Shown here: one piece after another, positions 8,354 to 36,870 of the stretch
Layout of the letters: each line of letters opens with the position of its first letter
How positions within the stretch are numbered: the first letter of the stretch is position 1
Translations under genes and position numbers: made by a program
Notes under the pieces: generated by a model
Seen by the model: only the letters and a program-made list of their open reading frames with translations
Told to the model about the DNA's origin: nothing
Databases searched by the model: none
Assembly: GCA_900315245.1 (NCBI GenBank)
Contig: OMYJ01000003.1
Location: 32,121-96,120, forward strand
From: an uncultured Bacteroidales bacterium
GTDB taxonomy: Bacteria; Bacteroidota; Bacteroidia; Bacteroidales; WCHB1-69
Direction: 5' to 3'
Length of the DNA stretch: 64,000 bases

Positions 8354-8359
8354 CACATT

Positions 8360-8626: not shown

Positions 8627-8659
8627 AGCAGTAAGAAGTTCGTTTTGCCCAGTTGTCGC

Positions 8660-9843: not shown

Positions 9844-9858
9844 AAATCGGTATTTGTT

Positions 9859-10548: not shown

Positions 10549-10558
10549 GAATTACGAT

Positions 10559-12308: not shown

Positions 12309-12317
12309 TGTATTCTA

Positions 12318-12953: not shown

Positions 12954-12977
12954 TGTATTATTTTTTTATTGTTCTAC

Positions 12978-14069: not shown

Positions 14070-14071
14070 AA

Positions 14072-16285: not shown

Positions 16286-16294
16286 AAGTGAGGG

Positions 16295-16581
16295 TTGGTT
16301 ACTTCGTGTTGGTTACTTCGTGTTGATTACTTTGTGTTGATTACTTCGTGTTGGTTACTTCGTGTTGGTTACTTCGTGTTGATTACTTCGTGTTGGTTAC
16401 TTCGTGTTGGTTACTTCGTGTTGGTTACTTCGTGTTGGTTACTTCGTGTTGGTTACTTCGTGTTGATTACTTCGTGTTGATTACTTCGTGTTTGTGACTT
16501 CGTGTTGATTACTTCGTGTTAGTTATTTCATGTTAGTTATTTCATGTTAGTTATTTCATGTTGATGAGTGAATGTTAACAC
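16295..16581. repeat. Left half of a dyad tandem-repeat array (about 19 units of 14 nt, ending in the GTTAAC centre)
   Basis: (G/A)(G/A)TTACTTCGTGTT units grade into AGTTATTTCATGTT, then gatgagtgaatGTTAACac. It starts 10 nt from the ydeI-like ATG. Confidence 0.95.
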
Positions 16582-16611
16582 CTTATTCATATCGCTTGTT
16601 TTTTGAGTTTG

Positions 16612-16619
16612 CAAAGATA
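16612..16619 (-). promoter_or_regulatory. -7 box (CAAAGATA on the + strand) at the left end of the insertion, reading into the array and the ydeI-like gene
   Basis: gtttgcaaagatag. Transcription from here would cross 16581-16295 before the ATG at 16285. Confidence 0.4.
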
Positions 16620-16788
16620 GTAAAATATCACTCTGCAAAATGCAATCTTTAGTATTTTACCGCCGCAGCGACTTTGCCTTTGAGGAGTTTGCGCAGCTCG
16701 TACTCCAGTTTGGCGGCGGCGAAATCCGAGCGGAAAGCGTGCCTGGTCGCCCTAAAGTAAAAAGAATTAGACTTTAAGACACCATTAG

Positions 16789-16821
16789 TTTAACGTACTC
16801 GAAATATCAGGTCATAAAAAC
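16789..16821 (+). repeat. 33-nt direct repeat tttaacgtactcgaaatatcaggtcataaaaac (copy 1)
   Basis: Identical to 18234-18266. The two copies bracket the small-ORF block. Confidence 0.9.
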
Positions 16822-17033
16822 TGGATGTCGTGTTCCTGGATCCCGCGTATCCTGTTGGCCTTCATGTCCATCTTCAGCCCGCAGGTCTGCGCCCGCTGGA
16901 CGAATCTCACCTCCCCGTTCTTTGTGTAGAAGGATATGGAGAAATAGACCGGCTTCCCGCCAGCCTCTTTGATTTCCATTTCTTTCAGCGCCATCGCGCG
17001 TTTGATTTTCTTCATCTGTGGAATTTTCGGCAA
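16812..17033 (-). CDS. Hypothetical 73-aa protein
   Basis: ORF MPKIPQMKKIKRAMALKEMEIKEAGGKPVYFSISFYTKNGEVRFVQRAQTCGL... I recognise no family, and its stop lies inside the 33-nt repeat. Confidence 0.3.
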   Translation of the reverse strand: MPKIPQMKKIKRAMALKEMEIKEAGGKPVYFSISFYTKNGEVRFVQRAQTCGLKMDMKANRIRGIQEHDIQFL

Positions 17034-17075
17034 AAGTACTTCTGTTCATCCGTTCGGGTTGGGAACAAAAAAAAA

Positions 17076-17096
17076 GGCATCGCCTGTGGCGATGCC
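17076..17096 (-). terminator. Rho-independent terminator after paralogue A
   Basis: Stem GGCATCGCC/GGCGATGCC with a 3-nt loop. On the minus strand it is followed by a 9-nt U tract (a-run 17067-17075). Confidence 0.7.
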
Positions 17097-17118
17097 CTCT
17101 GCTTCAATTCTGTTTTTT

Positions 17119-17502
17119 TCATCCTCCCATGCCTCCGATAATCGGTGCCATCCACGTCATCGGGTTAGGTGCATGTTTTTTCTTTATTTCTTGTATAGCC
17201 TTGTCCCTGCCGTCGAGGAATGCTGTCGTAAAATCCGATTCTGACATTCCATTCAGGACATAAATGCAATCCTCCGTTTCTATTCCTTTTCCGAGAACGT
17301 TTCCGAAGTCGTCCGTCACTTCATTCAGCTCGTTGAAAAAATCCACCGAGCAGTATGTTTCCCACCACGCCATGCTCAAGCATCTTTGATTCATGAATGT
17401 CTTGACTATATCGTATATCGCGCTCTCAAGTTTTATCCTTTGGTCTATGTCCATCGGACCGTCTATGATTTGCTTTTCCATGACACGAGGTTTTTCATCC
17501 AT
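17119..17502 (-). CDS. Small acidic hypothetical protein, paralogue A (likely start at MEKQIIDG)
   Basis: Nearly identical to B over MEKQIIDGPMDIDQRIKLESAIYDIVKT..CLSMAWWETYCSVDFF..GNVLGKGIETEDCIY. It shares the C-terminus NPMTWMAPIIGGMGG with C. Confidence 0.55.
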   Translation of the reverse strand: MDEKPRVMEKQIIDGPMDIDQRIKLESAIYDIVKTFMNQRCLSMAWWETYCSVDFFNELNEVTDDFGNVLGKGIETEDCIYVLNGMSESDFTTAFLDGRDKAIQEIKKKHAPNPMTWMAPIIGGMGG

Positions 17503-17843
17503 GCCAGTGGACTGATTTCATCTTCATTTATCTCCTGTATTGCTTTTTCTTTTCCGTAGTGGAAAGCTGTCGTAAAATCGAATTCTGACTCCCTGTTCAG
17601 GATATATATGCAATCCTCCGTTTCTATTCCTTTTCCGAGAACGTTTCCGGAATCGTCCGACACTTCATTCAGCTCGTCGAAAAAATCCACCGAGCAGTAT
17701 GTTTCCCACCACGCCATGCTCAAGCATCTTTGATCCATGGATGTCTTGACTATATCGTATATCGCGCTCTCAAGTTTTATCCTTTGGTCTATGTCCATCG
17801 GACCGTCTATGATTTGCTTTTCCATGACACGAGGTTTTTTCAT
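17463..17843 (-). CDS. Small acidic hypothetical protein, paralogue B
   Basis: Tandem duplicate of A. Its 3' end overlaps the start of A in another frame. Confidence 0.5.
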   Translation of the reverse strand: MKKPRVMEKQIIDGPMDIDQRIKLESAIYDIVKTSMDQRCLSMAWWETYCSVDFFDELNEVSDDSGNVLGKGIETEDCIYILNRESEFDFTTAFHYGKEKAIQEINEDEISPLAWMKNLVSWKSKS

Positions 17844-17848
17844 AAAAA

Positions 17849-17865
17849 CATCGCCTGTGGCGATG
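17849..17865 (-). terminator. Hairpin/terminator after paralogue C (same module as 17076-17096)
   Basis: catcgcc tgt ggcgatg, followed on the minus strand by uuuuuau. The flanking ~70 nt is repeated at 17097-17160 and 17866-17930. Confidence 0.55.
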
Positions 17866-17889
17866 CCCTTTGCTTCAATTCTGTTTTTT

Positions 17890-18216
17890 TCATCCTCCCA
17901 TGCCTCCGATAATCGGTGCCATCCACGTCATCGGGTTTAGCTTGTGCTCTTCTCGGTATTCGCGACACGCCTCCTCCCTTGCATCTTCGAACGCGTTCCA
18001 GATTTCCTCCATATTTTCTTCGGTTATCCTGTATACGTTTTCCTCCAGTTCGATTATGTCTTTGTCATCGAAATACACGTCAAAGCTGACCATCTCATGC
18101 CAAGTAATGGTTAATCCGCTGTACTCGATAGAATCTTTAATGTTATCGTAGATTTGATTTTTCAAATCCTCTCTTTGTTGTGCGTTTAAATGACCGTCTA
18201 TGATTTGTTTCTCCAT
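17890..18216 (-). CDS. Small acidic hypothetical protein, paralogue C (divergent)
   Basis: MEKQIIDGHLNAQQREDLKNQIYDNIK...ITWHEMVSFDVYFDD... ends in KLNPMTWMAPIIGGMGG. Confidence 0.55.
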   Translation of the reverse strand: MEKQIIDGHLNAQQREDLKNQIYDNIKDSIEYSGLTITWHEMVSFDVYFDDKDIIELEENVYRITEENMEEIWNAFEDAREEACREYREEHKLNPMTWMAPIIGGMGG

Positions 18217-18233
18217 TACACGAGTTTTTTTGT

Positions 18234-18266
18234 TTTAACGTACTCGAAATATCAGGTCATAAAAAC
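18234..18266 (+). repeat. 33-nt direct repeat (copy 2)
   Basis: Identical to 16789-16821. Confidence 0.9.
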
Positions 18267-18395
18267 CTATAGAATGGTACGTTTTGTGAATCATATTATT
18301 ACAACGATTTTTGTCTAAAAAAATTGTGCAACTTCGCATTTTTTGAACTTCTCAATTAACGGCACAAAACTACAAAAAAAGCCGTCACAATCTGC

Positions 18396-18550
18396 AACAG
18401 CTTTCAAAAACTGATCAAACATCCGAAAATGCGATTTTGGGTTATGGTGTCACTTGGTAGTCAAAGTTGGTGGACAGTCCGATGAGGGAGTCCATCACCG
18501 AAGCGATGAAACCGAGCAGTTTGGACTTGAAGCCGGGGCGTTTGTCTGCT
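18396..18550 (-). repeat. Second copy of the IS-end-like repeat, with the ORF tail ..KRPGFKSKLLGFIASVMDSLIGLSTNFDYQVTP*
   Basis: Reverse-complement homology to 3108-3218. Confidence 0.4.
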
Positions 18551-18811
18551 ATATGATGCGGTACTTTTTGCCCTCCTTGTTTATGTCCTATGATTTTTCG
18601 TTATGTTAAAGCGGTTGTCCGAATCTGTTACGGTCGCGAAGGTTGGCGGGCCGTTAGGTCTGCGGGCATAAATCGAATCCCACGCCGTTTTCCATAATCC
18701 CCGCACACCTACGGCGTGCGGAAAAACCAAAACGCCGCCCCCATCCCTACCGAGCCCTTCAGCCCTAACGGGCTGTGTCGTGTATGAATAGTCTTCCGTT
18801 GATACGGTCGC

Positions 18812-19201
18812 GAATGTTAACACGAAGGCTAACCAACAGCGCAGCTAACCAACACGAAGTAATTAACAGCCGCAGGCTCACCAACAGCGAAGCTCACCAA
18901 CAGCCGTAGGCGCATCAACAGCGAAGCTAACCAACAGCCGAAGGCTAACCAACAGCGAAGCTTACCAACACGAAGTAATTAACAGCCGCAGGCTTACCAA
19001 CAGCGAAGCTAACTAACAGCCGAAGGCTAATCAACAGCCGAAGGCTAACCAACAGCGAAGCTAACTAACAGCCGAAGGCTCACCAACAGCCGAAGGCTAA
19101 CCAACAGCGAAGCTAACTAACAGCCGAAGGCTAACCAACAGCGAAGCTAACCAACAGCCGAAGGCTAATCAACAGCCGAAGGCCTGTCAACACGAAGTAA
19201 A
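18812..19201. repeat. Right half of the split dyad array (16/18-nt units)
   Basis: gaatGTTAACacgaaggctaaccaacagc..., then alternating AACAGCCGAAGGCTNANY and AACAGCGAAGCTNANY, ending in caacacgaagtaa. It overlaps the last 12 codons of the CPBP ORF. Confidence 0.95.
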
Positions 19202-21657: not shown

Positions 21658-22776
21658 TTACAGATTCTTGCTAAAAAACTCCGCCACCGTGTCCCACGGG
21701 ATGTAGTTGCCCTCGCCGCCGTCGTAGAGGTCGCAGTGGGTGGCGCCGGGGATGATGAGCAGCTGCTTGTTGTCAGGGTTGGGATTCGGCTTGCCGATGA
21801 AGTTGTAACCTTCGGCCTTGCCATCCACCATATAGTGGTAGGCCGCCTCGCCGAAGTAGCGGCTGTGGGCCTTCTCGCCGTGCATCACGAGGACGGCGGA
21901 ACGGATCTCGTTGATGTAGTAGAGGAAGCGGGCGTTGGCGTATGCCTGCGTGCCGATGACGCGCCAGCCATCGTTGCTGTTGCCACTGCGCTTGTGGTAG
22001 CCGCGCGGGGTCTTGTAGTAGGCGTGGTAGTCTTTCACGAACTGCGGAACCTCATCGGGCAGCGGGTCGATGACGCCGCCGGCCATCGCCAGCGGGTCGG
22101 CGAGACGCTGCTTGCCCATTGCCTCACGTGCAGCATGGCGTGACTCCTCTTTGTCGTCGCTGTCGTAGTAGCCGTTGCCGCTGACGCGGGTCATGTCGTA
22201 CATCGTGCTGGCCACGGTGGCCTTGATGCGCGGGTCGGCAGCGGCGGCATTCAGGGCGATGCCACCCCAACCGCAGATGCCGATGATGCCGATGCGCTCA
22301 GGGTCCACATTCTCTAACTGCGACAGGAAATCAACAGCGGCCATAAAGTCCTCCGTGTTGATGTCGGGCGAGGCCGTGCGACGGGGCTCGCCGCTGCTCT
22401 CACCGGTGTACGACGGGTCAAAAGCCAGTGCCACGAAGCCGCGTTCCGCCATCTTCATAGCGTAGAGGCCACTGCTTTGCTCCTTCACGGCGCCGAAAGG
22501 TCCGCTCACAGCGATGGCGGGGAGACCCCTCCCCCCGCCATCCCCAAAGGGGAGGGAGCCTTTTGGCTCATACAAATCTGCGGCCAAGGTCAGGCCGTAC
22601 TGTGTTTCAAACGTCACCTTGCGGTGGTTCACTTTGTCGCTGAGGGGGAACACCTTGTCCCACTCCTGCGTGAGGTTCAATTCCTGTTTCATATTCTCGT
22701 TGTTATTTGTTTCTTGCTTGTTGCCGCAGGCGGCCAGTGACAGTGCCGCGAGGGCGAAGAGGATGAGTTTTTTCAT
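21658..22776 (-). CDS. Alpha/beta hydrolase lipoprotein
   Basis: Lipobox MKKLILFALAALSLAACGN. It has a nucleophile-elbow context IGIIGICGWGG and a C-terminal GATHCDLYD. Confidence 0.8.
   Translation of the reverse strand: MKKLILFALAALSLAACGNKQETNNNENMKQELNLTQEWDKVFPLSDKVNHRKVTFETQYGLTLAADLYEPKGSLPFGDGGGRGLPAIAVSGPFGAVKEQSSGLYAMKMAERGFVALAFDPSYTGESSGEPRRTASPDINTEDFMAAVDFLSQLENVDPERIGIIGICGWGGIALNAAAADPRIKATVASTMYDMTRVSGNGYYDSDDKEESRHAAREAMGKQRLADPLAMAGGVIDPLPDEVPQFVKDYHAYYKTPRGYHKRSGNSNDGWRVIGTQAYANARFLYYINEIRSAVLVMHGEKAHSRYFGEAAYHYMVDGKAEGYNFIGKPNPNPDNKQLLIIPGATHCDLYDGGEGNYIPWDTVAEFFSKNL
22519..22560. repeat. In-frame G/C-rich palindromic element inside the hydrolase CDS (encodes GSLPFGDGGGRGLP)
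   Basis: ggggagacccctccccccgccatccccaaaggggagggagcc. Its reverse complement aligns with the element at 299-338. Confidence 0.6.
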
Positions 22777-22790
22777 ATCGGTTATTATAC

Positions 22791-23225
22791 GTTAGTTATT
22801 TCATGTTGGTTACTTCGTGTTGGTTATTTCATGTTGGTTACTTCGTGTTAGTTATTTCATGTTGGTTATTTCATGTTAACACGAAGTAATTAACAGCCGA
22901 AGGCTTACCAACAGCGAAGCTAATTAACAGCCGAAGGCTTACCAACAGCGAAGCTAATTAACAGCCGAAGGCTTACCAACAGCGAAGCTAATTAACAGCC
23001 GAAGGCTAACTAACAGCGAAGCTCATCAACAGCCGAAGGCTAACTAACAGCGAAGCTAATTAACAGCCGAAGGCTCACCAACAGCGAAGCTAACCAACAG
23101 CCGAAGGCTAATCAACAGCGAAGCTAACTAACAGCCGAAGGCTAACTATCAGCCGAAGGCTTACCAACAGCGAAGCTAATTAACAGCCGAAGGCTTACCA
23201 ACAGCGAAGCTCATCAACACGAAGT
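22791..23225. repeat. Complete dyad tandem-repeat array (centre GTTAAC at 22875-22880)
   Basis: The left arm starts 14 nt from the ATG at 22776. The right arm ends ..gctcatcaacacgaagt and supplies TSC* of the CDS ending at 23214. Confidence 0.95.
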
Positions 23226-23759
23226 GATCTCTCGTATCACTTTCGCCGGACTCCCCGCCACCACCATATTGTCGGGCACGTCCTTGTTGACCACGCTGCC
23301 AGCCGCCACGATAGCGTTCTCGCCGATGGTGACGCCTGCCAGCACTTTCACGTCGGCGCCGAGCCATGCGTTGCGTTTCACCACGATGGGTTTGGTGAGC
23401 AGCGTGTGACGCGCGGCGGGGTCTTCGGGATGGTATTCGGTGGCTAACACGCAATGCGGACCGATGAAGACGTCATCCTCGATGGTGATGCCGCCTATGG
23501 CCAACAGCGTGCAACCGAAGTTGAGGAAGCAGTCGTTGCCGAAGCGCACGCCCGGTCCGTAGTTGATGTTGAGCGGCGTAAACACTCGCACGGTGTCGGG
23601 CACCTCGCTGCGGGTGATCTCGCGCAGATAGTCGCGCACCTCCGCTTCGGTGTGGTAGCCGCTGTTCATCTCGGCGCAGAGCTGCATCGTGCGCTGCACG
23701 TCGGCGTAGAGGTCGTCGCTGCCGACGTAGTCTTTTCCTGTGGGTTTGTCGTTCGTCAT
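23214..23759 (-). CDS. Maltose/galactoside-type sugar O-acetyltransferase (hexapeptide repeat)
   Basis: Start trimmed to MTNDKPTG (ATG 23759). LNINYGPGVRFGNDCFLNFGCTLL..EDPAARHTLLTKPIVVKRNAWLGADVKVLAGVTIGENAIVAAGSVV..VVAGSPAKVIR. Confidence 0.8.
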   Translation of the reverse strand: MTNDKPTGKDYVGSDDLYADVQRTMQLCAEMNSGYHTEAEVRDYLREITRSEVPDTVRVFTPLNINYGPGVRFGNDCFLNFGCTLLAIGGITIEDDVFIGPHCVLATEYHPEDPAARHTLLTKPIVVKRNAWLGADVKVLAGVTIGENAIVAAGSVVNKDVPDNMVVAGSPAKVIREITSC

Positions 23760-24385: not shown

Positions 24386-24697
24386 AAGTGAATGTTTATT
24401 ACTTCGTGTTGATTACTTCGTGTTGGTTACTTCGTGTTGGTTATTTCATGTTGATTATTTCATGTTGGTTATTTCATGTTGGTTATTTCATGTTGGTTAT
24501 TTCATGTTAACACGAAGTAATTAACAGCGAAGCTAATTAACAGCCGAAGGCTAATCAACAGCGAAGCTAACTAACAGCCGAAGGCTAATCAACAGCGAAG
24601 CTAACTAACAGCCGAAGGCTAATCAACAGCGAAGCTAACTAACAGCCGAAGGCTAACCAACAGCGAAGCTAACTAACAGCCGAAGGCTAACTAACTA
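24386..24697. repeat. Complete dyad array (centre GTTAAC at 24506-24511)
   Basis: The boundary aagtgaatgtt lies 8 nt from the ATG at 24378. The right arm runs into the TAG stop (24695-24697) of the next gene. Confidence 0.95.
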
Positions 24698-25825
24698 TTT
24701 TAGTGTTCCATATTGTTCGTCGCTGACGGGCTCCAGCCATTCGTTGCTGGCCCCTTCCTGCACGTCCTTATGGTAGGTGAGGTGCTGCATCCAGCTGTCT
24801 TTGGCGGCGCCGTGCCAGTGCTTCACACCCTCGGGAATCTCAATGATTACGCCAGGCTCCAACTTGACAGCGGGCTTGCCCCATTCCTGGTACCAACCAC
24901 GGCCATAGACGCACACCAACACCTGCACCTGCTTGTGGTGGATGTGCCAGTTGTTGCGGCATCCCGGCTCGAAGGTCACGTTGACCATGCCGCCATCGTA
25001 GGGCGCAAGGTAGCTGTTGCCGATGAAGTACTGTGCGTAGGCGGTGTTCGGCTCGCCTCTGCGCCAGTTCGACTTCAAGTCAACGTAGTTCTGGACGTAT
25101 ATATCGCTGGCGAGGTGGTCGTTGGCAGAATCGCTGATGCCCAACTGCTGAATGGCCACGGCGACACGGTGCGCTTCCATTTTGCCCACACGCTCCTGCA
25201 ACACCTTCGGGATGGCGAGCAGCTGGGCGTCGGTCAGACCCATGTTCCGTGCGCCGCGCACGTGGGCGGCCAGCTGGGGTTCCACGCCCTCCAGACCAGC
25301 CAAAGCACTGACGGTCACCAACTCGCGGTCGGCGTGGGTGAGCAGGTCGCGGGCGAAGATGTCGCCGAAGAGGTGCGCCTTGAGGTAGTAGTCCTCGGCG
25401 GGACAGAACTTGTAGTCGAAGGGTTGCCCCGACAGTTTGGTCTGCACTTCGGTGCCTTGTTTCAGGGCGTCGTAGCTGCCGGGAATCGGAGAGGACTCCT
25501 CCCCTGTCGTCACCTCACCGCGCTGTTCCATCACCTTCTGCAGGGTGCCTAATGCGTTGAGCGAGCGCGGAAATCCCGTGTAGGCGTAGAGTTGCGAGAG
25601 GGCCTCCTTGATCTGGTTGGCGGTAAGCCCCGCGTCGAAGCCCTCATGGATGGCGGTGGCTAACGACGTTTGGTCGCCCTGCGCCTCGTAGCAGGCGATG
25701 GCCGTCATCGCCGCCGCCTGCTTCTCGTTGAATGTCAAAGTGTTCATATCTTTGTCTGTTTTTGTTGTCTTGTTGCAGCCGGCCATCAACACGATGGCGG
25801 CGAAAATCAGAAGGGTGTGTTTCAT
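24695..25825 (-). CDS. Carboxymuconolactone decarboxylase (AhpD-like) family protein fused to a cupin domain; lipoprotein
   Basis: Lipobox LIFAAIVLMAGCN. Two CMD-like segments are followed by NNWHIHHKQVQVLVCVYGRGWYQEWG..IPEGVKHWHGA. Confidence 0.7.
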   Translation of the reverse strand: MKHTLLIFAAIVLMAGCNKTTKTDKDMNTLTFNEKQAAAMTAIACYEAQGDQTSLATAIHEGFDAGLTANQIKEALSQLYAYTGFPRSLNALGTLQKVMEQRGEVTTGEESSPIPGSYDALKQGTEVQTKLSGQPFDYKFCPAEDYYLKAHLFGDIFARDLLTHADRELVTVSALAGLEGVEPQLAAHVRGARNMGLTDAQLLAIPKVLQERVGKMEAHRVAVAIQQLGISDSANDHLASDIYVQNYVDLKSNWRRGEPNTAYAQYFIGNSYLAPYDGGMVNVTFEPGCRNNWHIHHKQVQVLVCVYGRGWYQEWGKPAVKLEPGVIIEIPEGVKHWHGAAKDSWMQHLTYHKDVQEGASNEWLEPVSDEQYGTLK

Positions 25826-27381: not shown

Positions 27382-28485
27382 ATGAAGAAATCATTGTTTG
27401 TGGCTGTGCTGTTAATGCTTGCCGGAATGACACTGAATGCTCAGGAGAACAACTACGCGAAGAGCGATTTTGTTCCCGGCGACGAAATCATATTCGACGA
27501 CAACTTTGAACACGAGAAACTTGGGGAATTCCCGCTGCGATGGGACTTGCTGGATGGCTATGCGGAGACCGCGCAGCAGAAGGGTCGCAATGTTCTGGCG
27601 TTCACCGACAACGGTCTGGGACAGGTGATGCCGCTGATGAAAGAGAAATGGGATTGGCTACCTGAGGTGTTCACGGTGGAGTTCGACCTCTACGTGGCCC
27701 CGATGAATTCGGCAGACGAGGAGGAGACATCGCTCGATATGAGCATTTATTTCGGCGACCGCGGTGACGAAAGCTACTACAACGCCTCGAGTTATGTGCG
27801 TTTCTGGTACAGGGAAGACGGGTCGTGCAACTTGACGTGGTCTCTGCTGAAACCGGACGGGAGTAGCCAGTCGAGTGGAGAAAAGATGTTGGGGCTGACC
27901 CCGGGCACCAGCGACTACTTAGAGAAGGACAATCCGGTGGTTGCCGGCGAGTGGAACCACTTCGCCTTTTCGTTCAACAAGCGGGCTTTCAAGGGCTATG
28001 TGAATGGCGTGCGCATGATCAACGTGCCGGCGATGAAGGCGCCGGGCTACCTCTTCTTCGCCAGCGGAGCGTACTATCGCTACACGGGGTTGAGCAACGT
28101 GCGCATCGCCCAGGGCGCCGTGCCGCTCTACGACCGTTTGACCACCGACGGCAAGATTGTGACCTACGCCATCACCTTCGAGAGCGGCAAGGCCGACCTC
28201 AAACCGGAATCCACCATTGAAATCAATCGCGTGGCCAAGCTGATGCAAGAGCACACCGACCTCATCTTCGAGGTGCAGGGTCACTGCGACAACACCGGAA
28301 CCGACGCCATAAACGATCCGCTGAGCCAGAAGCGTGCAGAAGCCATCGTGGATGCCCTGGTGAAACTGGGTATCGACAAATCACGTCTCTCGGCCGTGGG
28401 CAAAGGATCACACTCCCCCATCGCCCCCAACACCACAGAGGAAGGCCGTGCCAAGAACCGCCGTGTGGAATTTGTAAAGAAATAA
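27382..28485 (+). CDS. OmpA-family protein
   Basis: Signal peptide MKKSLFVAVLLMLAGMTLNAQ and a C-terminal OmpA domain FESGKADLKPES...GHCDNTGTDAINDPLSQKRAEAIVDALV..GRAKNRRVEF. Confidence 0.8.
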   Translation: MKKSLFVAVLLMLAGMTLNAQENNYAKSDFVPGDEIIFDDNFEHEKLGEFPLRWDLLDGYAETAQQKGRNVLAFTDNGLGQVMPLMKEKWDWLPEVFTVEFDLYVAPMNSADEEETSLDMSIYFGDRGDESYYNASSYVRFWYREDGSCNLTWSLLKPDGSSQSSGEKMLGLTPGTSDYLEKDNPVVAGEWNHFAFSFNKRAFKGYVNGVRMINVPAMKAPGYLFFASGAYYRYTGLSNVRIAQGAVPLYDRLTTDGKIVTYAITFESGKADLKPESTIEINRVAKLMQEHTDLIFEVQGHCDNTGTDAINDPLSQKRAEAIVDALVKLGIDKSRLSAVGKGSHSPIAPNTTEEGRAKNRRVEFVKK

Positions 28486-28490: not shown

Positions 28491-29117
28491 TGATTTGGTT
28501 ACTTCGTGTTGGTTACTTCGTGTTGGTTACTTCGTGTTGATTATTTCATGTTGATTATTTCATGTTAACACGAAGTAATTAACAGCCGCAGGCTAACTAA
28601 CAGCGTAGCTAATCAACAGCCGAAGGCTAACTAACAGCCGAAGGCTAACCAACAGCGAAGCTAACCAACAGCCGAAGGCTAACTAACAGCCGAAGGCTAA
28701 CCAACAGCCGAAGGCTAACTAACAGCCGAAGGCTAACCAACAGCCGAAGGCTAACCAACAGCCGAAGGCTAACCAACAGCCGAAGGCTAACCAACAGCGA
28801 AGCTAACCAACAGTCGAAGGCTAATCAACAGCGAAGCTAACCAACAGCCGAAGGCTAACTAACAGCCGAAGGCTAACTAACAGCCGAAGGCTAACTAACA
28901 GCCGAAGGCTAACCAACAGCGAAGCTAACTAACAGCCGAAGGCTAACCAACAGCGAAGCTAACCAACAGCCGAAGGCTAACTAACAGCCGAAGGCTAACC
29001 AACAGCGAAGCTAACCAACAGCGAAGCTAATCAACAGCCGAAGGCTAACTAACAGCGAAGCTAACCAACAGCCGAAGGCTAACTAACAGCCGAAGGCTAA
29101 CCAACAGTCGAAGGCTA
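28491..29117. repeat. Complete dyad array (centre GTTAAC at 28564-28569; right arm about 550 bp) between convergent genes
   Basis: It begins 6 nt after the TAA of 27382..28485. The last unit ..cgaaggcta provides the TAG stop (29115-29117) of the GNAT gene. Confidence 0.95.
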
Positions 29118-30275
29118 TTTCAGCTCCAACCTCAGCACCCTGATAGGTCTGTCTTTTCCTTGATACTGGGTCTCGTCGATGCAGGTTTCTCCGGTGGGTT
29201 GGAATCCACACTTCTCCATCACACGGCCGGAGGCGGGATTGTCAACGAAATGCCCGCTGATGAGCGATTGGATGTCCGTCGTTCGGCGGATATAGTCTAA
29301 CATCGTTTGCAGCGCTTCCGTGCAGATGCCTCGGTTCCAGTACGGTTTGGCCACCCAATAGCCGCAGAGGGGCTCCCCCTCGCGGGCGGGGAGATTGCAC
29401 TCGCACGAAGGACCGTAGCCGATGGCCCCGATGGCTTCTCCCGTCGCGTTGAGTTCGATGGCCCAGTTGGAGTCGTTGTGGAATACCGTGCGGATGATCT
29501 CTAAGCTTTCCTCTCTGCTGTTGTGCGGTGGCCAGCCCGCCCGAGGTCCCACGTCCGGGTCGGAGGCGTATTTGAACAAGGAGTCGGCGTCGCTCTCAAA
29601 CCAGGGACGAAGTGTCAGCCTCTCGGTCCGCAGCATCAGTTTGGCCTTTTCGGCGAAAGGCGGCAACTGCCCATCGTTATAGGCTTTCGCCTTTCTGGGG
29701 AAACCTTTGTCGTACGCTTCGAACGCTTCGGGGTTCTCATCAGCCACGAAATAGCCCTTCGGCGGACAATAGGTGCCCTCGCGGTTGCCCCAATAGCCAG
29801 GAATCAGCTCCTGGGCGAGGAAGAAAGGTACTTCCTCCTGCGGCATATCATGGTAATGGATGCGGAGCTTGCTGGCCAGACCGAAGCCCGCGTGTTTGTA
29901 AAACTCGATATTGCCCTCCATCTGAAGCATGCCGACCCCCATCTCACGCGCCTTCTCCAATGCATAGCGAAGGAGTTTCAGCCCGTAGCCTTTGCGCTTG
30001 TAGTCGGGGTGAATGCTGATGGGGCCGAAGGTCCATGAAGGGAAGGCTGTCCCATCGTCAAGGAGGATTTCGGCTTTCGAGAACATCACGTGACCGATCA
30101 GCTTGCCGTCTTCTTCCATCACGAAGTCCAGTTCGGGGATGAAATCGGGATTGTTTCTGTATTGATTGAGCACATAATGCTCCGTGCATCCGGGACGATA
30201 GACGTTCCAGAACGCATTGCGGGTGAGGTCCTCCACCTCGCGATAATCTTCGGGTTGCTCAAGTCGGATAGTCAT
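29115..30275 (-). CDS. Tandem GNAT-family N-acetyltransferase
   Basis: Two acetyltransferase halves: ..HPDYKRKGYGLKLLRYALEKA.. and ..VAKPYWNRGICTEALQTMLDY.. Confidence 0.8.
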   Translation of the reverse strand: MTIRLEQPEDYREVEDLTRNAFWNVYRPGCTEHYVLNQYRNNPDFIPELDFVMEEDGKLIGHVMFSKAEILLDDGTAFPSWTFGPISIHPDYKRKGYGLKLLRYALEKAREMGVGMLQMEGNIEFYKHAGFGLASKLRIHYHDMPQEEVPFFLAQELIPGYWGNREGTYCPPKGYFVADENPEAFEAYDKGFPRKAKAYNDGQLPPFAEKAKLMLRTERLTLRPWFESDADSLFKYASDPDVGPRAGWPPHNSREESLEIIRTVFHNDSNWAIELNATGEAIGAIGYGPSCECNLPAREGEPLCGYWVAKPYWNRGICTEALQTMLDYIRRTTDIQSLISGHFVDNPASGRVMEKCGFQPTGETCIDETQYQGKDRPIRVLRLELK

Positions 30276-30316
30276 AGTCTATTTTATGTCTATTTTATCG
30301 GATGAAATTCGTTTAA

Positions 30317-30535
30317 GTGAATGTTGGTTACTTCGTGTTAGTTACTTCGTGTTAGTTACTTCGTGTTAGTTATTTCATGTTGGTGACTTCGTGTTGGTGA
30401 GTGAATGTTAACACGAAGTCATTAACAGCGAAGCTAACTAACAGCGAAGCTAATCAACAGCCGAAGGCTAACTAACAGCGAAGCTAATCAACAGCCGAAG
30501 GCTAACTAACAGCCGAAGGCTCATCAACACGAAGT
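30317..30535. repeat. Complete dyad array (centre GTTAAC at 30407-30412)
   Basis: The boundary gtgaatgtt is at 30317. The right end ..ggctcatcaacacgaagt supplies TSC* of the ClbS-like CDS. Confidence 0.95.
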
Positions 30536-31054
30536 CTTCAGCTTCTTTTGGTGCGTCTTCAACATCTTCAACGCCTGCTTGTAGGGACTCGTGGTGACAC
30601 TCGTGAAGTAAGCCGCCATATCGGTGGTGTAGGTGCACTTGTAGTGGCCTTTGGTGAAAAGTTCCTCCTCGGAGAAGCTGCCCGCCAGCTGAATCATTTC
30701 GTCATGGGTCTGCTCCAGAAGCCGCTGCGCCTCTTTGAACGAGGTGCTCTGGTGTTTTTCCACCAACATCTTGTCCATTTCGTGGTAGTTTTTGCGGTAT
30801 TCGTCGGGCAGATAGTCCTTTTGACGGCCTTCGCGGATGTTGTTCACAAATTCGCTCATCAGCACTTGCCATTCATAAAGGTGTATGAGGAGGTCGCGGG
30901 CGCATTGGTCGTAAATCCACCGTGCACCGCATTTTTTGGGGTCATTGGCGAACTGGAAGGTCGCGTTCAGTTCGTCATCTGTCATTTTGCCGATTTGCTC
31001 GTTCAGTTTCGCATAACTGTCCGACATGGCTGCTAAGAGTTCGTTTTTGTCCAT
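30524..31054 (-). CDS. ClbS/DfsB-family four-helix-bundle protein (DUF1706)
   Basis: Start trimmed to MDKNELL, because the -7 box at 31097 overlaps the longer ORF. ..CARDLLIHLYEWQVLMSEFV.. Confidence 0.65.
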   Translation of the reverse strand: MDKNELLAAMSDSYAKLNEQIGKMTDDELNATFQFANDPKKCGARWIYDQCARDLLIHLYEWQVLMSEFVNNIREGRQKDYLPDEYRKNYHEMDKMLVEKHQSTSFKEAQRLLEQTHDEMIQLAGSFSEEELFTKGHYKCTYTTDMAAYFTSVTTSPYKQALKMLKTHQKKLKTSC

Positions 31055-31096: not shown

Positions 31097-31104
31097 CAAA
31101 GATA
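31097..31104 (-). promoter_or_regulatory. -7 box (CAAAGATA on the + strand) for the ClbS-like gene
   Basis: ccttgcaaagatac, 43 nt upstream of the ATG at 31054. Confidence 0.5.
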
Positions 31105-31132: not shown

Positions 31133-31277
31133 GGTTACTTCGTGTTGATTACTTCGTGTTGATTATTTCATGTTAACACGAAGTCATTAACAGCCGAAGG
31201 CTAACCAACAGCGAAGCTAACCAACAGCGAAGCTAATCAACAGCCGTAGGCTAATCAACAGCGAAGCTAACCGACAG
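31133..31277. repeat. Short complete dyad array (centre GTTAAC at 31172-31177) between divergent promoters
   Basis: ggttacttcgtgtt gattacttcgtgtt gattatttcatGTTAACacgaagtcatt aacagccgaaggct... Confidence 0.95.
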
Positions 31278-31324
31278 CCATATTCTTTTGCAAAATATTT
31301 TTTTGCCATGTAAGAAAATAGTCG

Positions 31325-31912: not shown

Positions 31913-31963
31913 GACAAAGAATACTTCAAAAACACTACTTTTCTTGAAAGAAACAGAAAGGCT

Positions 31964-32667
31964 GATCACTTCGTGTTGATGACTTCGTGTTGATGACTTC
32001 GTGTTGATGACTTCGTGTTGATGACTTCGTGTTAATTATTTCATGTTAATTATTTCATGTTAACACAAAGTAATTAACAGCCGAAGGCTAACCAACAGCG
32101 AAGCTAATCAACAGCCGAAGGCTAACCAACAGCCGAAGGCTAACCAACAGCGAAGCTAATCAACAGCCGAAGGCTAACCAACAGCGAAGCTAACCAACAG
32201 CCGAAGGCTAACCAACAGCGAAGCTCATCAACAGTCGAAGGCTAACCAACAGCGAAGCTCATCAACAGCCGAAGGCTAACCAACAGCGAAGCTAATCAAC
32301 AGTCGAAGGCTAACCAACAGCGAAGCTCATCAACAGCCGAAGGCTAACCAACAGCGAAGCTCATCAACAGCCGAAGGCTAACCAACAGCGAAGCTCATCA
32401 ACAGCCGAAGGCTAACCAACAGCGAAGCTAATCAACAGCCGAAGGCTAACCAACAGCGAAGCTAACCAACAGCGAAGCTAATCAACAGCCGAAGGCTAAC
32501 CAACAGCGAAGCTAACCAACAGCGAAGCTAACCAACAGCGAAGCTAACCAACAGCAAAGCTAATCAACAGCCGAAGGCTAACCAACAGCGAAGCTAATCA
32601 ACAGCCGAAGGCTAACCAACAGCGAAGCTAATCAACAGCCGAAGGCTAACCAACAGCCGCAGGCTCA
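31964..32667. repeat. Largest complete dyad array (centre GTTAAC at 32059-32064; right arm about 600 bp) between convergent genes
   Basis: The left arm uses GATGACTTCGTGTT then AATTATTTCATGTT units. The right arm ends ..cagccgcaggctca, containing the TGA stop (32665-32667) of the reductase gene. Confidence 0.95.
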
Positions 32668-33630
32668 CAACGCTCCTACCACCTCGTGCGCTTTGTAGGG
32701 CTCTTCGAGGTAGGTGGCGTCTTCGTCGCTGAGGTCGAGATCCAAGGCGCGGACCGCGTCGTTGAAGTGCGGCACTTTCGTGGCTCCCACGATGGGTGCG
32801 GCGACACCCCGCTTCAGCAGCCAGGCCAACGCCACTTCCGTCATCGTCACGCCGAGACGCTCCGCCACCTCCGCCACACGGGCGACGATCTGCATGTCGT
32901 TCTCCATGGCGTGGTCGTATTTGCTGTGCATCACCTTGTCGGTCTCGTTGCGCTTCGACCCACTGTTCCACTCCTTGCGGGTGAGGTGTCCGCTGGCGAG
33001 GGGAGAGTAAGGGATGAGCGACACGCCGTACTGTTTCGCCACGGGAATCAGCTCACGCTCGTCCTCGCGATAGAGGAGGTTGTAGTGGTTCTGCAGCGTG
33101 GAGAACAGCGTCCAGCCGTTGCGCTCGGCGCAGATCTGCATATTGTGGAACTGGTAGCCGTACATCGCCGAGGCGCCGATGGCCCGCACTTTGCCGCTTT
33201 GCACCAACTCGTGCAGCGTCTGCATCGTCTCCTCGATGGGTGTGCCGTAGTCGAAACGGTGGATCTGGTAGAGATCGAGGTAGTCGGTGCCCAAACGTTG
33301 CAGCGTGCCGTCGATCTCGCGACGGATGGCCGCGGCGGAGAGCTTGCCCTCGTTGAAATAGACTTTCGAGGCGAACACCACCTGGTCGCGGGCGACGCCG
33401 AGGTCTTTAAGCGCTTTGCCTAAGAACTCCTCGCTGGTACCGTGCGAATAGCCGTTGGCCGTGTCGAAGAAGTTCACCCCGAGGTCGAGGGCGTGCTTGA
33501 TCATCTTCGTGGTCTCCTCCTGATTGAGAGTCCACAGGTGGAAGTCCTCCGAGGGCTTCCCGTACGACATGCAGCCGACGCAGATGCGGCTGACTTCAAT
33601 GTCAGTGTTTCCTAATTGCGTGTATTTCAT
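32665..33630 (-). CDS. Aldo/keto reductase
   Basis: MKYTQLGNTDIEVSRICVGCMSYG..FFDTANGYSHGTSEEFLGKAL..DYLDLYQIHRFD. Confidence 0.85.
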   Translation of the reverse strand: MKYTQLGNTDIEVSRICVGCMSYGKPSEDFHLWTLNQEETTKMIKHALDLGVNFFDTANGYSHGTSEEFLGKALKDLGVARDQVVFASKVYFNEGKLSAAAIRREIDGTLQRLGTDYLDLYQIHRFDYGTPIEETMQTLHELVQSGKVRAIGASAMYGYQFHNMQICAERNGWTLFSTLQNHYNLLYREDERELIPVAKQYGVSLIPYSPLASGHLTRKEWNSGSKRNETDKVMHSKYDHAMENDMQIVARVAEVAERLGVTMTEVALAWLLKRGVAAPIVGATKVPHFNDAVRALDLDLSDEDATYLEEPYKAHEVVGAL

Positions 33631-34911: not shown

Positions 34912-35760
34912 TTATACCAACCCACGCCATCCCATAAACATCTTGGTCACTTCGCCATCGTGGTGGTCGAAGAAGAGACTTTTGCCTGTATCAAGGGTCT
35001 GGATCTGCGCCATATCGTCGGAGGTGAGTTCGAAATCGAAGATGTTGAGATTCTCGGCCATGCGTTCCTTGTGCGTTGACTTCGGGATGATGATGACCCC
35101 ACGCTGCAGCAGCCAGCGCAAAGCCACCTGCGGAATGCTCTTCCCGTACTTCTTGCCAATCTCGCCAAGCAATTCGTTGGAGAAGAAGCCGTTGCGACCT
35201 TCGGCCAACGGTCCCCACGACATAATACGGCAGTCAAGTTCGTCCATATACTTTTTGGCCTCCACCTGCTGGTCAAACACGTGCGTTTCCACTTGGTTGA
35301 CCATCGGCTTCACTTCCACATTCGACGCGAGGTCAATAAGGTGGTCGGGATAGAAGTTGCTCACGCCGATGGCGCGTAATTTGCCTTCGCGGTAAGCTTC
35401 CTCCAATGCGCGGTAGGCACCGTAGCGGTCGCAGAAGGGCTGGTGCAGCAGCATCAGGTCGATGTACTCCATCTGCAGTTTGCGCAAACTCTCGTCGATG
35501 CTGGTTTTTGCCTTTTCGTAACCATAGTTCGATATCCAGATTTTCGACACGATGAAGACCTCGTCGCGGGCGATGCCACTTTGTTTCACTGCGTTTCCCA
35601 CACCTTCCTCGTTGGCGTAAGCCTGCGCCGTGTCAATCATACGGTATCCGACACTCAATGCGTCACTCACGCACCGTTCACACTCTTCAGGTGTTACCTG
35701 ATAAACGCCATACCCCAATTGAGGCATTTCAACTCCATTAGATAATTTGATGATTTTCAT
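34912..35760 (-). CDS. Aldo/keto reductase (2,5-diketo-D-gluconate reductase-like)
   Basis: MPQLGYGVYQV..GYRMIDTAQAYANEEGVG..FIVSKIW..IDLMLLHQP..IPKSTHKERMAEN. Confidence 0.85.
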   Translation of the reverse strand: MKIIKLSNGVEMPQLGYGVYQVTPEECERCVSDALSVGYRMIDTAQAYANEEGVGNAVKQSGIARDEVFIVSKIWISNYGYEKAKTSIDESLRKLQMEYIDLMLLHQPFCDRYGAYRALEEAYREGKLRAIGVSNFYPDHLIDLASNVEVKPMVNQVETHVFDQQVEAKKYMDELDCRIMSWGPLAEGRNGFFSNELLGEIGKKYGKSIPQVALRWLLQRGVIIIPKSTHKERMAENLNIFDFELTSDDMAQIQTLDTGKSLFFDHHDGEVTKMFMGWRGLV

Positions 35761-35826: not shown

Positions 35827-35914
35827 CATCCTTTTGCGTTGCGCAAGTTTCACAAAAAACATCAAAACTTTCACAATAAGCACAAAAGTTTTGCGTTTTA
35901 TCTTAACTTGAATT

Positions 35915-36025
35915 ACCACGAATGAATCACGAATAGACCACGAATGAATCATCAATTAATTCATTGTAATTCGTGAATAATTTATGATAATTCACGATAA
36001 TTCATGTGAGATTTACGATAATCCA
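35915..36025. promoter_or_regulatory. Repeat-rich divergent control region (CACGAATGAAT / ATTCGTGAAT words in dyad and ~10-11-nt direct arrangement); candidate AraC operator
   Basis: ccacgaatgaatcacgaatagaccacgaatgaatcatcaattaattcattgtaattcgtgaataatttatgataattcacgataattcatgtgag, immediately upstream of the AraC gene. Confidence 0.4.
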
Positions 36026-36051: not shown

Positions 36052-36870
36052 ATGAAAATTGATTTCCTCTATTCCACCGATTTCCTCGGCATGAACGCGC
36101 AAGAACTGAGCCACACCTGCATGCATCTGCTCTGCACAGCTGGCGAAGGGAGTTTCGTGTTCAACGAGAAATGCTACCACATCGTGAAAAATGACCTGGT
36201 GGTGATGCCGAATCCCAGCCGGGCGAAGAATCTTGCCGCCGCACCGGGAATGCAGGTGGAGTGGTTCGCCGCCGACTACAAGTTCCTGCAGAACCTGCTG
36301 CCCTCGAACAACTACGGCATCGGGGGCGCCATCTCCCTTAACCACGATCCCGTCATCAAGCTCACGGATGAGCAGGCAGCCATCCTCCTCGCCGACTTCC
36401 ACCGCCTCCGAGACCGCATGAACGACCGCGACCTGCTGTTCTACCGCGAGTTGATGGGCAGCCTCTGCCTGACAATGATGTATGACATCTTCGAACCGCA
36501 CGCGCAGCGCGACGCCACCGATCCCCACAGCGACCGCACGGCCTATATCGTCAAGCAGCTGATGGACTTGCTTTCCACGGGCATCAGCCGCACGGAGCGC
36601 GAGGTGAGTTACTATGCCGAGCGGCTACACGTGTCGCCGAAGTATCTCTCCGCCACCGTCAAGCGCGTCACCGGCCACAGCGTCAGCAGCTTCATCGACC
36701 GCCACACGGTGCCCATCCTGAAGAAATATCTTAATGATGAACGGCTCTCGCTCACGCAGATCGCCGACCGTATGAATTTCACGTCGCTCTCCTATTTCAG
36801 CCGCTATTGCACCAAGCATCTCGGACAGTCGCCCAGCGAGTACAGGCGAAGTTTGCAGCCCAAGGGGTAA
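36052..36870 (+). CDS. AraC-family transcriptional regulator
   Basis: C-terminal HTH pair: ..YYAERLHVSPKYLSATVKRVTGHS..SLTQIADRMNFTSLSYFSRYCTKHLGQSPSEYR. Confidence 0.85.
   Translation: MKIDFLYSTDFLGMNAQELSHTCMHLLCTAGEGSFVFNEKCYHIVKNDLVVMPNPSRAKNLAAAPGMQVEWFAADYKFLQNLLPSNNYGIGGAISLNHDPVIKLTDEQAAILLADFHRLRDRMNDRDLLFYRELMGSLCLTMMYDIFEPHAQRDATDPHSDRTAYIVKQLMDLLSTGISRTEREVSYYAERLHVSPKYLSATVKRVTGHSVSSFIDRHTVPILKKYLNDERLSLTQIADRMNFTSLSYFSRYCTKHLGQSPSEYRRSLQPKG

Follow-up and report, generated by a model that had tools for sequence, protein, structure and literature searches.

The 64,000-nucleotide (nt) stretch of an uncultured Bacteroidales genome analyzed here (hereinafter the window; contig OMYJ01000003.1 of assembly GCA_900315245.1, positions 32,121 to 96,120) carries, at positions 28495-29117, with the stop codon of an OmpA-family gene on one side and that of a GNAT gene on the other, a two-armed tandem-repeat array whose units have self-complementary cores resembling a well-characterized DNA mini-hairpin. 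Our tentative interpretation, to which we give somewhat less than an even chance, is that this array belongs to a lineage-specific intergenic minisatellite family of uncultured rumen and gut Bacteroidales whose units, of the c(GNA)g mini-hairpin type, would drive slippage and turnover when they lie in single-stranded DNA. The observations on which it builds concern the anatomy of the arrays, their distribution, the covariation of stem positions, copy-number alleles among strains, position relative to genes, and an avoidance of palindromes.

Throughout the family, each unit reads, outward along its arm, as AAC, followed by a core of the form A-stem-G-N-A-stem'-T and then by NAYY. Put differently, a 9-nt linker rich in A and C (T-N-A-Y-Y-A-A-C-A) combines with a mini-hairpin to form the building block; the hairpin has a stem of 2 to 4 bp around a G-N-A triloop, the closing pair being almost always C-G. 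In the clade to which the window belongs, the cores are ACGNAGT, ATGNAAT, AGCGNAGCT, and AGCCGNAGGCT, and about 99% of the hairpin-type cores have a G-N-A loop (GAA far more often than GCA, and GCA more often than GTA), with non-GNA loops making up about 1%. The wider family, recovered with a search pattern in which the stem pair and the loop middle were left free, adds AGGNACT cores with a G-C inner pair, GCGAAGC and GTGCAAC cores with a G-C outer pair, and occasional GGA loops. The stem grows symmetrically, to 2, 3, or 4 bp, and the 9-nt linker stays constant; a variable stem with a constant linker fits an extruded hairpin and not a phased double-stranded binding site.

The array at 28495-29117 and the two genes that converge on it are made up as follows.

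28495..28566, bottom strand: left arm, five 14-mers, appearing on the top strand as three copies of GGTTACTTCGTGTT and two of GATTATTTCATGTT
28564..28569, no strand: GTT-AAC head-to-head junction of the arms
28567..29117, top strand: right arm, one 14-mer AACACGAAGTAATT, nine 16-mers AACAGCGAAGCTAAYY, and twenty-two 18-mers AACAGCCGAAGGCTAAYY
27382..28485, top strand: flanking OmpA-family gene
29115..30275, bottom strand: flanking double GNAT acetyltransferase gene

There are 37 units, 5 on the bottom strand and 32 on the top strand, and the right arm has a Tandem Repeats Finder (TRF) score of 822. Read on the bottom strand from the center outward, the left arm has two copies of AACATGAAATAATC (the top-strand GATTATTTCATGTT) and then three of AACACGAAGTAACC (the top-strand GGTTACTTCGTGTT); it begins about 10 nt after the OmpA-family stop codon (TAA, 28483-28485), and the TAG stop codon of the GNAT gene (CTA, 29115-29117) falls within the last unit of the array. 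The window contains 44 copies of the sequence AACACGAAGT where 0.13 would be expected, far above chance, and every copy lies within an array. The original prediction on this DNA had placed the array at 28570-29117, which captures the right arm but only part of the whole. It named four hairpin-shaped cores (AGCC-GAA-GGCT, AGC-GAA-GCT, AC-GAA-GT, and AT-GAA-AT) and had the GAA-bearing strand reading 5' to 3' outward from GTTAAC (28564-28569) on both sides; all four cores and the polarity are correct. Its statement that every unit has a GAA hairpin stands insofar as all 37 units have a core self-complementary around G-N-A, but two 18-mers (AGTC-GAA-GGCT; one at about 28811-28821, the other being the terminal unit, at about 29106) contain a T.G mismatch and the right arm has one unit with a GCA loop and one with a GTA loop. 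Likewise, the GCGAAGC motif that it singled out is exact in eight of the nine 16-mers (the ninth has GCGTAGC), but the 14-mers have one G-C pair or none, and ACGAAGT, which it took for the terminal unit, ends the arrays at 19189, 23216, and 30526 but not this one, whose terminal unit is AGTCGAAGGCT.

Evidence that the cores vary as hairpins came from a census of 14-mers tokenized independently of the core, as chains of at least three AAC anchors spaced 14 nt apart, a procedure that also admits nonhairpin and out-of-register units. This census yielded 829 units from 116 loci. Their inner stem pair is of the Watson-Crick type in 77%, compared with 38% once shuffled, and no enrichment appears in off-register control pairs. 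A tally of inner pair types gave C-G 348, T-A 126, G-C 28, and non-Watson-Crick 51. Of the 829 units, 77% have G at position 3 and 96% have A at position 5, with position 4 free (A in 54%, C in 32%, T in 12%, and G in 2%). As judged from the unit sequences, a conserved G3 and A5 around a free N4 mark a sheared G.A triloop; a palindromic protein site on double-stranded DNA would leave G3 and A5 unexplained, the two not being complementary. Half-compensated cores (ACGAAAT, ACGCAAT, ATGCAGT, and ATGAAGT) amount to about 15 copies among some 600 hairpin-type units, T.G and C.A intermediates being equally rare and the mismatches showing no preference for G.U. When the 150 distinct 14-mer types were scored, covariation was 0.341 as observed versus 0.185 as shuffled, and 83.7% of the cells were paired versus 74.2%, neither observed value being reached in any of 500 shuffles; in slid-register controls, 9 to 48% of the cells were paired. 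Across distant genomes, the inner pair occurs in three to four Watson-Crick combinations and the outer pair in two, all of them with GAA, GCA, or GTA loops.

With covariation in the aligned units, a check that the original prediction had itself proposed, and with the near-uniform G-N-A loops of the window clade, the evidence for hairpin-shaped cores is stronger than that prediction had. Compensatory change, which it also asserted, is seen as covariation across the 116 loci but comes down, within the window, to one double substitution exchanging C-G and T-A plus two symmetric insertions, few independent events copied many times. Mismatched units and nonhairpin classes (about 8% of the 14-mers) contradict its view that all variants preserve stem complementarity, and the linker is conserved as well, in AACA and the tail A, so that structure cannot be set against primary sequence as it had been (variation was seen at the loop middle and at positions 1, 3, and 4 of the tail, in a set of units partly selected on these features). 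Selection on structure is thus only partly supported, preferential amplification of hairpin-competent units and hairpin-templated template switching being rival explanations for the same pattern.

The restriction to a G-N-A loop with a C-G closing pair is shared with the DNA mini-hairpins d(GCGAAGC) and d(GCGNAGC) described by Hirao, Yoshizawa, and colleagues (reviewed in PMC13037366), which are marked by exceptional thermal stability and nuclease resistance of the single strand. When all 64 triloops were placed in GCNNNGC, only G-N-A gave the extremely stable mini-hairpin; the stems accepted are GC-GC or CC-GG, and GCGAAGC melts at 76°C and its RNA tetraloop analogue, r(GCGAAAGC), at 39°C (PMC13037366). 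The loop rule, an invariant first G and last A that form a sheared pair with a free base between them, is followed by the window-clade cores and, at the frequencies given above, by the 14-mer census, and the full sequence rule (GCGNAGC or CCGNAGG) is matched by the 16-mers with AGCGAAGCT, which include exact GCGAAGC, and by the 18-mers with AGCCGAAGGCT, which include CCGAAGG. The loop abundance in the arrays (A > C > T) puts the most stable loop first, whereas GGA, second in stability in the mini-hairpins, is almost absent from the family. The known natural examples of these hairpins are single, at phage G4-type origins, ssi signals, and N4 early promoters, in contrast to the tens of tandem units in arrays dispersed over a bacterial chromosome. 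Standard folding energies were tried as a means of choosing the hairpin strand and set aside as uninformative, both strands being equal and the GNA bonus being absent from the models.

In all two-armed arrays found, the arms stand head to head with the GNA strand reading outward, a tail-to-tail arrangement never having been seen, and the units within each arm follow one another head to tail. GTTAAC has no special standing as a center, being merely two AAC unit heads joined, and other arrays have GTTACCAAC, GTTTCCAAC, or GTTAAACGC in its place. At 28564..28569, differing innermost units (ATGAAAT versus ACGAAGT) limit the perfect palindrome to TGTT-AACA (8 bp). The perfect palindrome is confined to TGTT-AACA at 47 of 53 GTTAAC junctions, and innermost cores of the same type occur at none of the 53, against about 13% expected. 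The arms, which differ in unit length too, never form a long perfect palindrome; they can still form a long, bulged hairpin with each other (-34.7 kcal/mol, z -6.2), and covariation between them was not seen, loops and unit lengths differing from arm to arm. Arrays that form long perfect palindromes presumably do not survive, which fits the known instability of such palindromes in bacteria.

Scans of one-genome-per-species contigs with exact and degenerate patterns recovered, in successive rounds, 6, 36, and at least 116 array stretches. The hosts are nearly all metagenome-assembled genomes (MAGs) of uncultured rumen and gut Bacteroidales, including Paludibacteraceae, often with many contigs from one MAG; the few matches in other phyla look like chance or misbinned contigs, and a contig labeled Fibrobacter (L038) is orthologous to Bacteroidales loci. 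IMG/VR gave no match in 2.9 million viral contigs, Rfam gave nothing for the array at the gathering threshold, and our literature searches found no description of these repeats. A known RNA family was considered and rejected, Rfam at E <= 1 returning only chance matches of microRNA-precursor hairpins over the junction. The family is apparently undescribed and made up of lineage-specific intergenic tandem repeats.

The window, which a type IX secretion system (T9SS) sorting domain at 42358-43464 identifies as coming from a Bacteroidota genome, contains eight arrays between 16.3 and 32.7 kb, together occupying 3,145 of 16,375 bp (19%). Those other than 28495-29117 are listed here.

16294..16581, bottom strand: one-armed array of about twenty 14-mers, with junction stub GTTAACAC
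18813..19200, top strand: one-armed array, 23 units (14, 16, or 18 nt each), with junction stub GAATGTTAAC
22767..23226, no single strand: two-armed array of 6 left and about 20 right units, from the stop codon of a hexapeptide transferase gene to the start codon of an alpha/beta-hydrolase gene
24393..24700, no single strand: two-armed array of 8 left and 11 right units, from the stop codon of a CMD-cupin gene to the start codon of a flavin mononucleotide (FMN) reductase gene
30310..30536, no single strand: two-armed array of 6 left and 8 right units, the intercistronic spacer of a DUF1706 gene and the GNAT gene
31135..31279, no single strand: short two-armed array of 3 left and 6 right units
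31963..32668, no single strand: two-armed array of 7 left and 36 right units, the largest of the window

The 14-mer arm is at the left in all of the window arrays, and terminal unit types recur, with ACGAAGT at the outer right end and ATTCACT at the outer left end. In the right arm of the largest array, 18-mers and 16-mers alternate near strictly with a period of 34 bp, and the stop codon of an aldo-keto reductase gene lies inside the last unit. The intervening genes are mostly on the minus strand and encode accessory-type enzymes, seven arrays of the same orientation separating blocks of one to four genes (GNAT, hexapeptide transferase, FMN reductase, ferritin, DinB-like, and aldo-keto reductases).

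Among about 48 arrays classified by their flanks, 42 lie between co-directional genes, 3 (including 28495-29117) between convergent genes, and about 3, doubtfully, between divergent genes. Array edges are -1 to 25 nt from the stop codon and 12 to 50 nt before the ATG, in accessory blocks and in core operons alike (e.g., hypB-hypA). The arm rich in 16- and 18-mers is stop proximal in the window and ATG proximal elsewhere, and one-armed arrays occur in both orientations relative to the flanking genes, sense arms lying 12 to 34 nt from the ATG and antisense arms 43 to 76 nt. A Bacteroidetes -7 box (TAnnTTTG) can stand between an array and its gene (TATCTTTG at 31097-31104, minus strand, between the array at 31135..31279 and the DUF1706 gene) or just upstream of a one-armed array (TATCTTTG at 16612-16619, minus strand); given the latter position, the arm at 16294..16581 would form a 5' leader of about 300 nt for the gene at 15713-16285 (minus strand). 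No promoter box was found between the array and the downstream ATG at 22767, 24393, and 30310, and these arrays must therefore be transcribed through. A promoter/terminator scan found no canonical terminators beside the arrays and no sigma-70 matches above chance, and no tRNA was found. Metatranscriptome (Logan) contigs run from the flanking genes into the arrays, though they are unstranded and DNA carry-over is possible; repeat depth in them sums over all arrays and taxa and is uninterpretable. As a separate observation, the T-A-type bottom-strand units (e.g., 28539-28566) spell AUG-AAA-UAA when read outward, and those of Paludibacteraceae spell AUG-CAA-UGA and AUG-UAA, amounting to repeated two-codon mini-open reading frames (ORFs) immediately upstream of genuine start codons, perhaps by coincidence.

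The number of units differs among strains. In independent rumen metagenome assemblies, the GNAT-array-OmpA locus has near-identical flanks and three alleles, given here as left plus right units.

5 + 32: the window and contigs L007 and L009
9 + 20: contigs L010, L011, and L014
9 + 11: contigs L008 and L012

The mismatched AGTC variant of the window is a recent polymorphism, since contig L007 carries AGCC at the corresponding position. Eight independent assemblies agree in gene order, and only L013 (3118-3451; same species, another rumen sample) has a different neighbor: there, the right arm of 28495-29117 is joined to a left flank in which the OmpA gene is replaced by a TATCTTTG box resembling a promoter, together with the start of another gene. 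What distinguishes this strain is a structural variant whose breakpoint falls within the array. Between species, arrays at orthologous sites have different unit types and different numbers of units, which points to in situ turnover and not to recent insertion. In a red deer MAG, the locus orthologous to 30310-30536 (L005, about 330-420) has a minimal DUF1706-GNAT spacer array, GACTTCGTGTTAACAGTCACTCACCAACATTCACTT, with terminal units and junction only, which could be a contracted allele or an assembly collapse.

The mechanism that we tentatively propose for this turnover starts from single-stranded DNA, exposed in replication and perhaps in transcription, in which the units would self-fold or pair out of register with their neighbors; identical stems do permit out-of-register pairing between units, as judged from minimum free energy structures of 52-mers. 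By slipped-strand events, such folding or misregister pairing would add or remove units, singly or in blocks. Units that make good hairpins would be reamplified, or corrected by hairpin-templated synthesis, and this would keep stem complementarity and the loop G and A while the loop middle and the linker tail drift. Arrays would survive only in stop-start spacers and only with arms too different to form a long perfect palindrome. Slippage would thus be the engine, amplification would be biased, and DNA rather than RNA would be the relevant nucleic acid; on the last point, the occurrence of one-armed arrays in both orientations and the equal rarity of T.G and C.A argue against a strand-specific role of the RNA.

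Several observations weigh against this mechanism. The 14-mers fall outside the mini-hairpin sequence rule, ACGAAGT having one G-C pair and ATGAAAT none, whereas two G-C pairs are said to be essential in the measured hairpins. Nearest-neighbor energies, from models without a GNA bonus term, are -2.3 kcal/mol for the 18-mers, -0.5 for the 16-mers, and 0 for the 14-mers and do not differ between the DNA strands. Hairpin formation in vivo is itself inferred. The nonhairpin 14-mer classes, ATTCACT and ATTTACT, have been amplified too, mainly at arm ends, and the covariation counts are of copies that share descent, not of independent events. GC skew is weakly negative throughout the window, where the GNA sequence of the long arms lies on the presumed nascent lagging strand, but arm-length asymmetry had no consistent sign relative to local GC skew in 19 arrays, a comparison invalidated by short-read collapse and by 8-kb loci, and most of the related loci come from short-read MAGs, which may collapse arrays. 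Many arrays, moreover, must be transcribed, and they may have a role at the RNA level.

Such a role, as leader, trailer, or intercistronic spacer, is the main rival. It would have the arrays transcribed as intercistronic or untranslated regions, with the unit hairpins serving as RNA structures or protein-binding sites, the ATG-proximal arm as an A/C-rich, G-poor, weakly structured leader suited to the Shine-Dalgarno-less translation of Bacteroidota, and the stop-proximal arm, or the bulged arm-to-arm hairpin, as protection or a processing site for the upstream mRNA, in the manner of repetitive extragenic palindromes (REPs) and bacterial interspersed mosaic elements (BIMEs). We consider it unlikely, though a good deal of the gene context agrees with it: the predominance of co-directional flanks, with arrays flush with the stop codon and shortly before the ATG; the several arrays without a promoter box before the ATG; a head-to-head geometry that puts sense (GNA) units before starts and antisense units after stops; the closer approach of sense than of antisense one-armed arrays to the ATG; the capacity of the arms to pair; and the metatranscriptome contigs that connect genes with arrays. 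Those contigs, however, are unstranded and open to DNA carry-over, one-armed arrays take both gene-relative orientations, the array at 28495-29117 sits between convergent genes, and some arrays lie upstream of the next gene's promoter (31097-31104). The arms do not covary, the mismatches lack a G.U preference, and the unit hairpins are predicted to be marginal in RNA (-3.7, -0.4, and 0 kcal/mol), the tetraloop analogue melting at 39°C (PMC13037366). Improbable, in our estimation, is a family of sites for a hairpin-binding protein or of nonautonomous mobile elements, served by a REP/RAYT-like or IS200/IS605-type HUH enzyme, a recombinase, or a nucleoid protein, with the conserved AACA 5' of each hairpin in the role of the REP GTAG. 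The conserved tetranucleotide next to a hairpin with a structure-specific loop, the arms inverted like terminal inverted repeats, the many dispersed loci per genome, and the recurrent terminal unit types are what such elements would show; but none of the 48 larger ORFs screened in the window (with Pfam, chiefly up to 43.5 kb; 8 with no or weak Pfam matches also with NCBIfam) was found to encode a transposase, an integrase, or a Y1/HUH enzyme, target site duplications were not seen, the viral contigs held no match, stems of 2 to 4 bp are far shorter than those of known REP or IS200 hairpins, and orthologous positions with different unit content across species point to in situ turnover.

A neutral origin, in which the hairpin shape is irrelevant and the units are quasi-palindromes descended from a palindromic seed (ACTTCGTGTT joined to AACACGAAGT), with the covariation reflecting a few ancestral unit types, deserves little credence. 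The independent events are indeed few, only about four stem types exist, clonally amplified, and nonhairpin units amplify as well. Such descent, however, does not sit easily with three to four inner and two outer Watson-Crick combinations that carry GAA, GCA, and GTA loops across distant genomes, with the rarity of half-compensated forms, with the lack of pairing in slid registers, or with the noncomplementary G3 and A5 being the most conserved core positions around a free N4. We regard as very improbable an integron-like system in which the genes between arrays are mobile cassettes swapped at the GTTAAC center. It would account for the seven same-orientation arrays that delimit accessory-type blocks of one to four genes, for the different neighbor joined to the right arm in L013, and for the GAATGTTAACAC sequence at both borders of the segment at 16582-18812. 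Against this, no integrase was found among the window ORFs screened (to 43.5 kb), gene order is the same in eight independent assemblies, arrays also lie between the core operon genes hypA and hypB, and GTTAAC is only a junction of unit heads that varies between arrays; the split array is more simply two one-armed arrays with stubs of lost arms, and the variants observed are those expected from homologous recombination between dispersed repeats.

When compared with known repeat systems, the family resembles several of them functionally, namely, REP/BIME, BOX, and BrickBuilt, but fails the defining features of each of these and of integron attC sites. REPs are imperfect palindromes of 20 to 40 nt with stems of 8 to 12 bp and a GTAG head, in alternating orientation and small clusters. 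Together with BIMEs and the associated RAYT enzymes of enterobacteria and Pseudomonas, they share with the arrays an extragenic, lineage-restricted distribution in hundreds of copies, a hairpin unit with a conserved 5' tetranucleotide, and a frequent position just after stop codons in operons, clustered, with inverted copies and usually cotranscribed. The arrays, in contrast, have units of 14 to 18 nt with stems of 2 to 4 bp and a 5' AACA in place of GTAG, and each of their arms strings together as many as about 36 units in direct tandem, the orientation switching only once; screening of the 48 larger ORFs of the window turned up no RAYT gene. The BOX elements of Streptococcus pneumoniae are likewise modular and intergenic, tandem internal units in varying number being enclosed by distinct terminal modules; they are transcribed and vary in copy number among strains, but the boxA-(boxB)n-boxC element has a 45-bp boxB, is not two armed, lacks the GNA grammar, has no sequence similarity to the arrays, and belongs to another phylum. 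Integron attC arrays, whose function depends on single-strand folding, are also repeated, same-orientation, hairpin-capable elements between small blocks of accessory genes. Each attC, however, is a single imperfect palindrome of 57 to 141 bp with R and L boxes (GTTRRRY), whereas the arrays are tandem repeats with unit ends GTTRRT/AYYAAC and occur inside core operons too; no Phage_integrase-type match, as expected of an IntI with its attI and Pc, was found in the ORFs screened up to 43.5 kb, and in place of a variable cassette order we saw one fixed in eight assemblies, with L013 as the one differing contig.

With hairpin-forming expandable repeats (CAG/CTG and others) and quasi-palindrome template switching, the arrays share the proposed engine, that is, self-pairing of single-stranded DNA followed by slippage and expansion or contraction, and hairpin-templated synthesis can make "compensatory" changes in one step; those systems are 3- to 6-nt eukaryotic units or single Escherichia coli quasi-palindromes, whereas the arrays consist of discrete 14- to 18-nt units of hairpin plus linker in which the mechanism would be a parallel one. 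MITEs (the miniature inverted-repeat class of transposable elements) of the BrickBuilt type combine terminal inverted repeats with a target site duplication and leader and tail modules; the arrays have inverted arms but single terminal units only, and no duplications were seen. The closest in lineage is BrickBuilt of Porphyromonas gingivalis, also of the Bacteroidales, which is always intergenic and has a spacerless tandem minisatellite of 1 to 23 copies at 19 strain-variable loci (PMC4596501). Its unit is 23 nt long and runs in one direction, with a leader of up to 285 nt, a tail of up to 318 nt, and small inverted-repeat ends, and it lies 49 to 591 nt from genes and carries promoters (PMC4596501); the arrays differ in their 14-, 16-, and 18-nt hairpin units, their two inverted arms, the lack of a long leader or tail, and their abutting of stop and start codons. 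The description that fits is the generic one of a bacterial intergenic minisatellite, with a short tandem unit, many dispersed loci in one lineage, and strain-polymorphic copy number. What is unusual among bacterial interspersed repeats is that the unit appears to match a specific, biophysically characterized DNA structure, with covariation for it.

Other features of the window were noted in passing. The segment at 16582-18812, between the two one-armed arrays, holds three tandem paralogous small ORFs (17119-17502, 17463-17843, and 17890-18216; 127, 126, and 108 amino acids) without a match in Pfam or NCBIfam and a 30-bp direct repeat, AACGTACTCGAAATATCAGGTCATAAAAAC, at 16792 and 18237; its ends are conserved in other MAGs (L017 and L028), where the middle is different. 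Site-specific insertion at GTTAAC was considered for this split array (16.3 to 19.2 kb) and rejected: no integrase was found among the ORFs screened, the junction varies, and the module of promoter, GTGTTAAC, and arm recurs (L028 and L017). Also rejected was the idea that the FMN-reductase/hexapeptide pair at 8.7 to 9.8 kb is a moved cassette of that at 23.2 to 24.4 kb, the two having only 33% identity. A different, small two-armed repeat at 35848-36004 occupies the divergent spacer of an aldo-keto reductase gene (34912-35760, minus strand) and an AraC-family regulator gene (36052-36870, plus strand), with CACGAATGAAT-type units at the left and ATAATTCACG-type units at the right around CAATTAATTCATTG and with two 21-nt repeats beginning TTTCACAA upstream; it has the CACGAA/TTCGTG motif in common with the array 14-mers. 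Intergenic heptamer microsatellites, (TTCACGA) x 8.7 and GAATGAT-like x 7 (54789-54849 and 56073-56127), adjoin Bacteroidetes-type promoter boxes (e.g., TACTTTTG near 54870), and their CGTGAAT is similar to the AGTGAATGTT terminal array units.

Farther from the arrays, a perfect 12-nt repeat (TTGGTGACATTA, 4.8 copies) at 1511-1568 lies in frame within the ORF at 1315-2904 (minus strand), whose product has Schlafen AlbA_2, HATPase_c_4, and helix-turn-helix (HTH) domains; the repeat gives an (NVTN)n tract that separates the ATPase-like domain from the HTH, and a shorter copy lies at 1225-1251. The region from 4151 to 14347 is rich in restriction-modification genes, with N6/N4 DNA methylases at 4151-5158, 10935-12308, and 12978-14069, an MjaI-family endonuclease at 12318-12953, and an HTH controller at 14072-14347, besides a DUF1848 gene at 7139-8203 and unannotated ORFs at 5168-6981; its GC content is 33 to 41%, versus about 55% elsewhere.

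For some 40 years, d(GCGAAGC) has been a biophysical curiosity with a handful of single natural occurrences, and the arrays are in effect evolution's own mutagenesis of it, their hundreds of units in many genomes forming a natural data set on what the mini-hairpin requires and a testable case of structure-driven minisatellite dynamics in bacteria. It is conceivable, though we doubt it, that this is the first natural system in which the c(GNA)g mini-hairpin is an evolutionarily maintained unit of a genome-wide repeat family and not slippage debris; in that event, the hairpins would really form in vivo, on a defined strand, with possible uses in intercistronic spacing and expression, in marking or protecting single-stranded DNA, or as sites for a hairpin-reading protein. 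For the organisms themselves, the arrays are recombination points for gene-block variation, and they break or collapse short-read assemblies of abundant rumen Bacteroidales while being usable as variable-number tandem-repeat (VNTR) markers for strain typing. They form the whole spacer between many cotranscribed genes, in a phylum from which Shine-Dalgarno-guided translation initiation is absent, and for this reason they probably influence expression.

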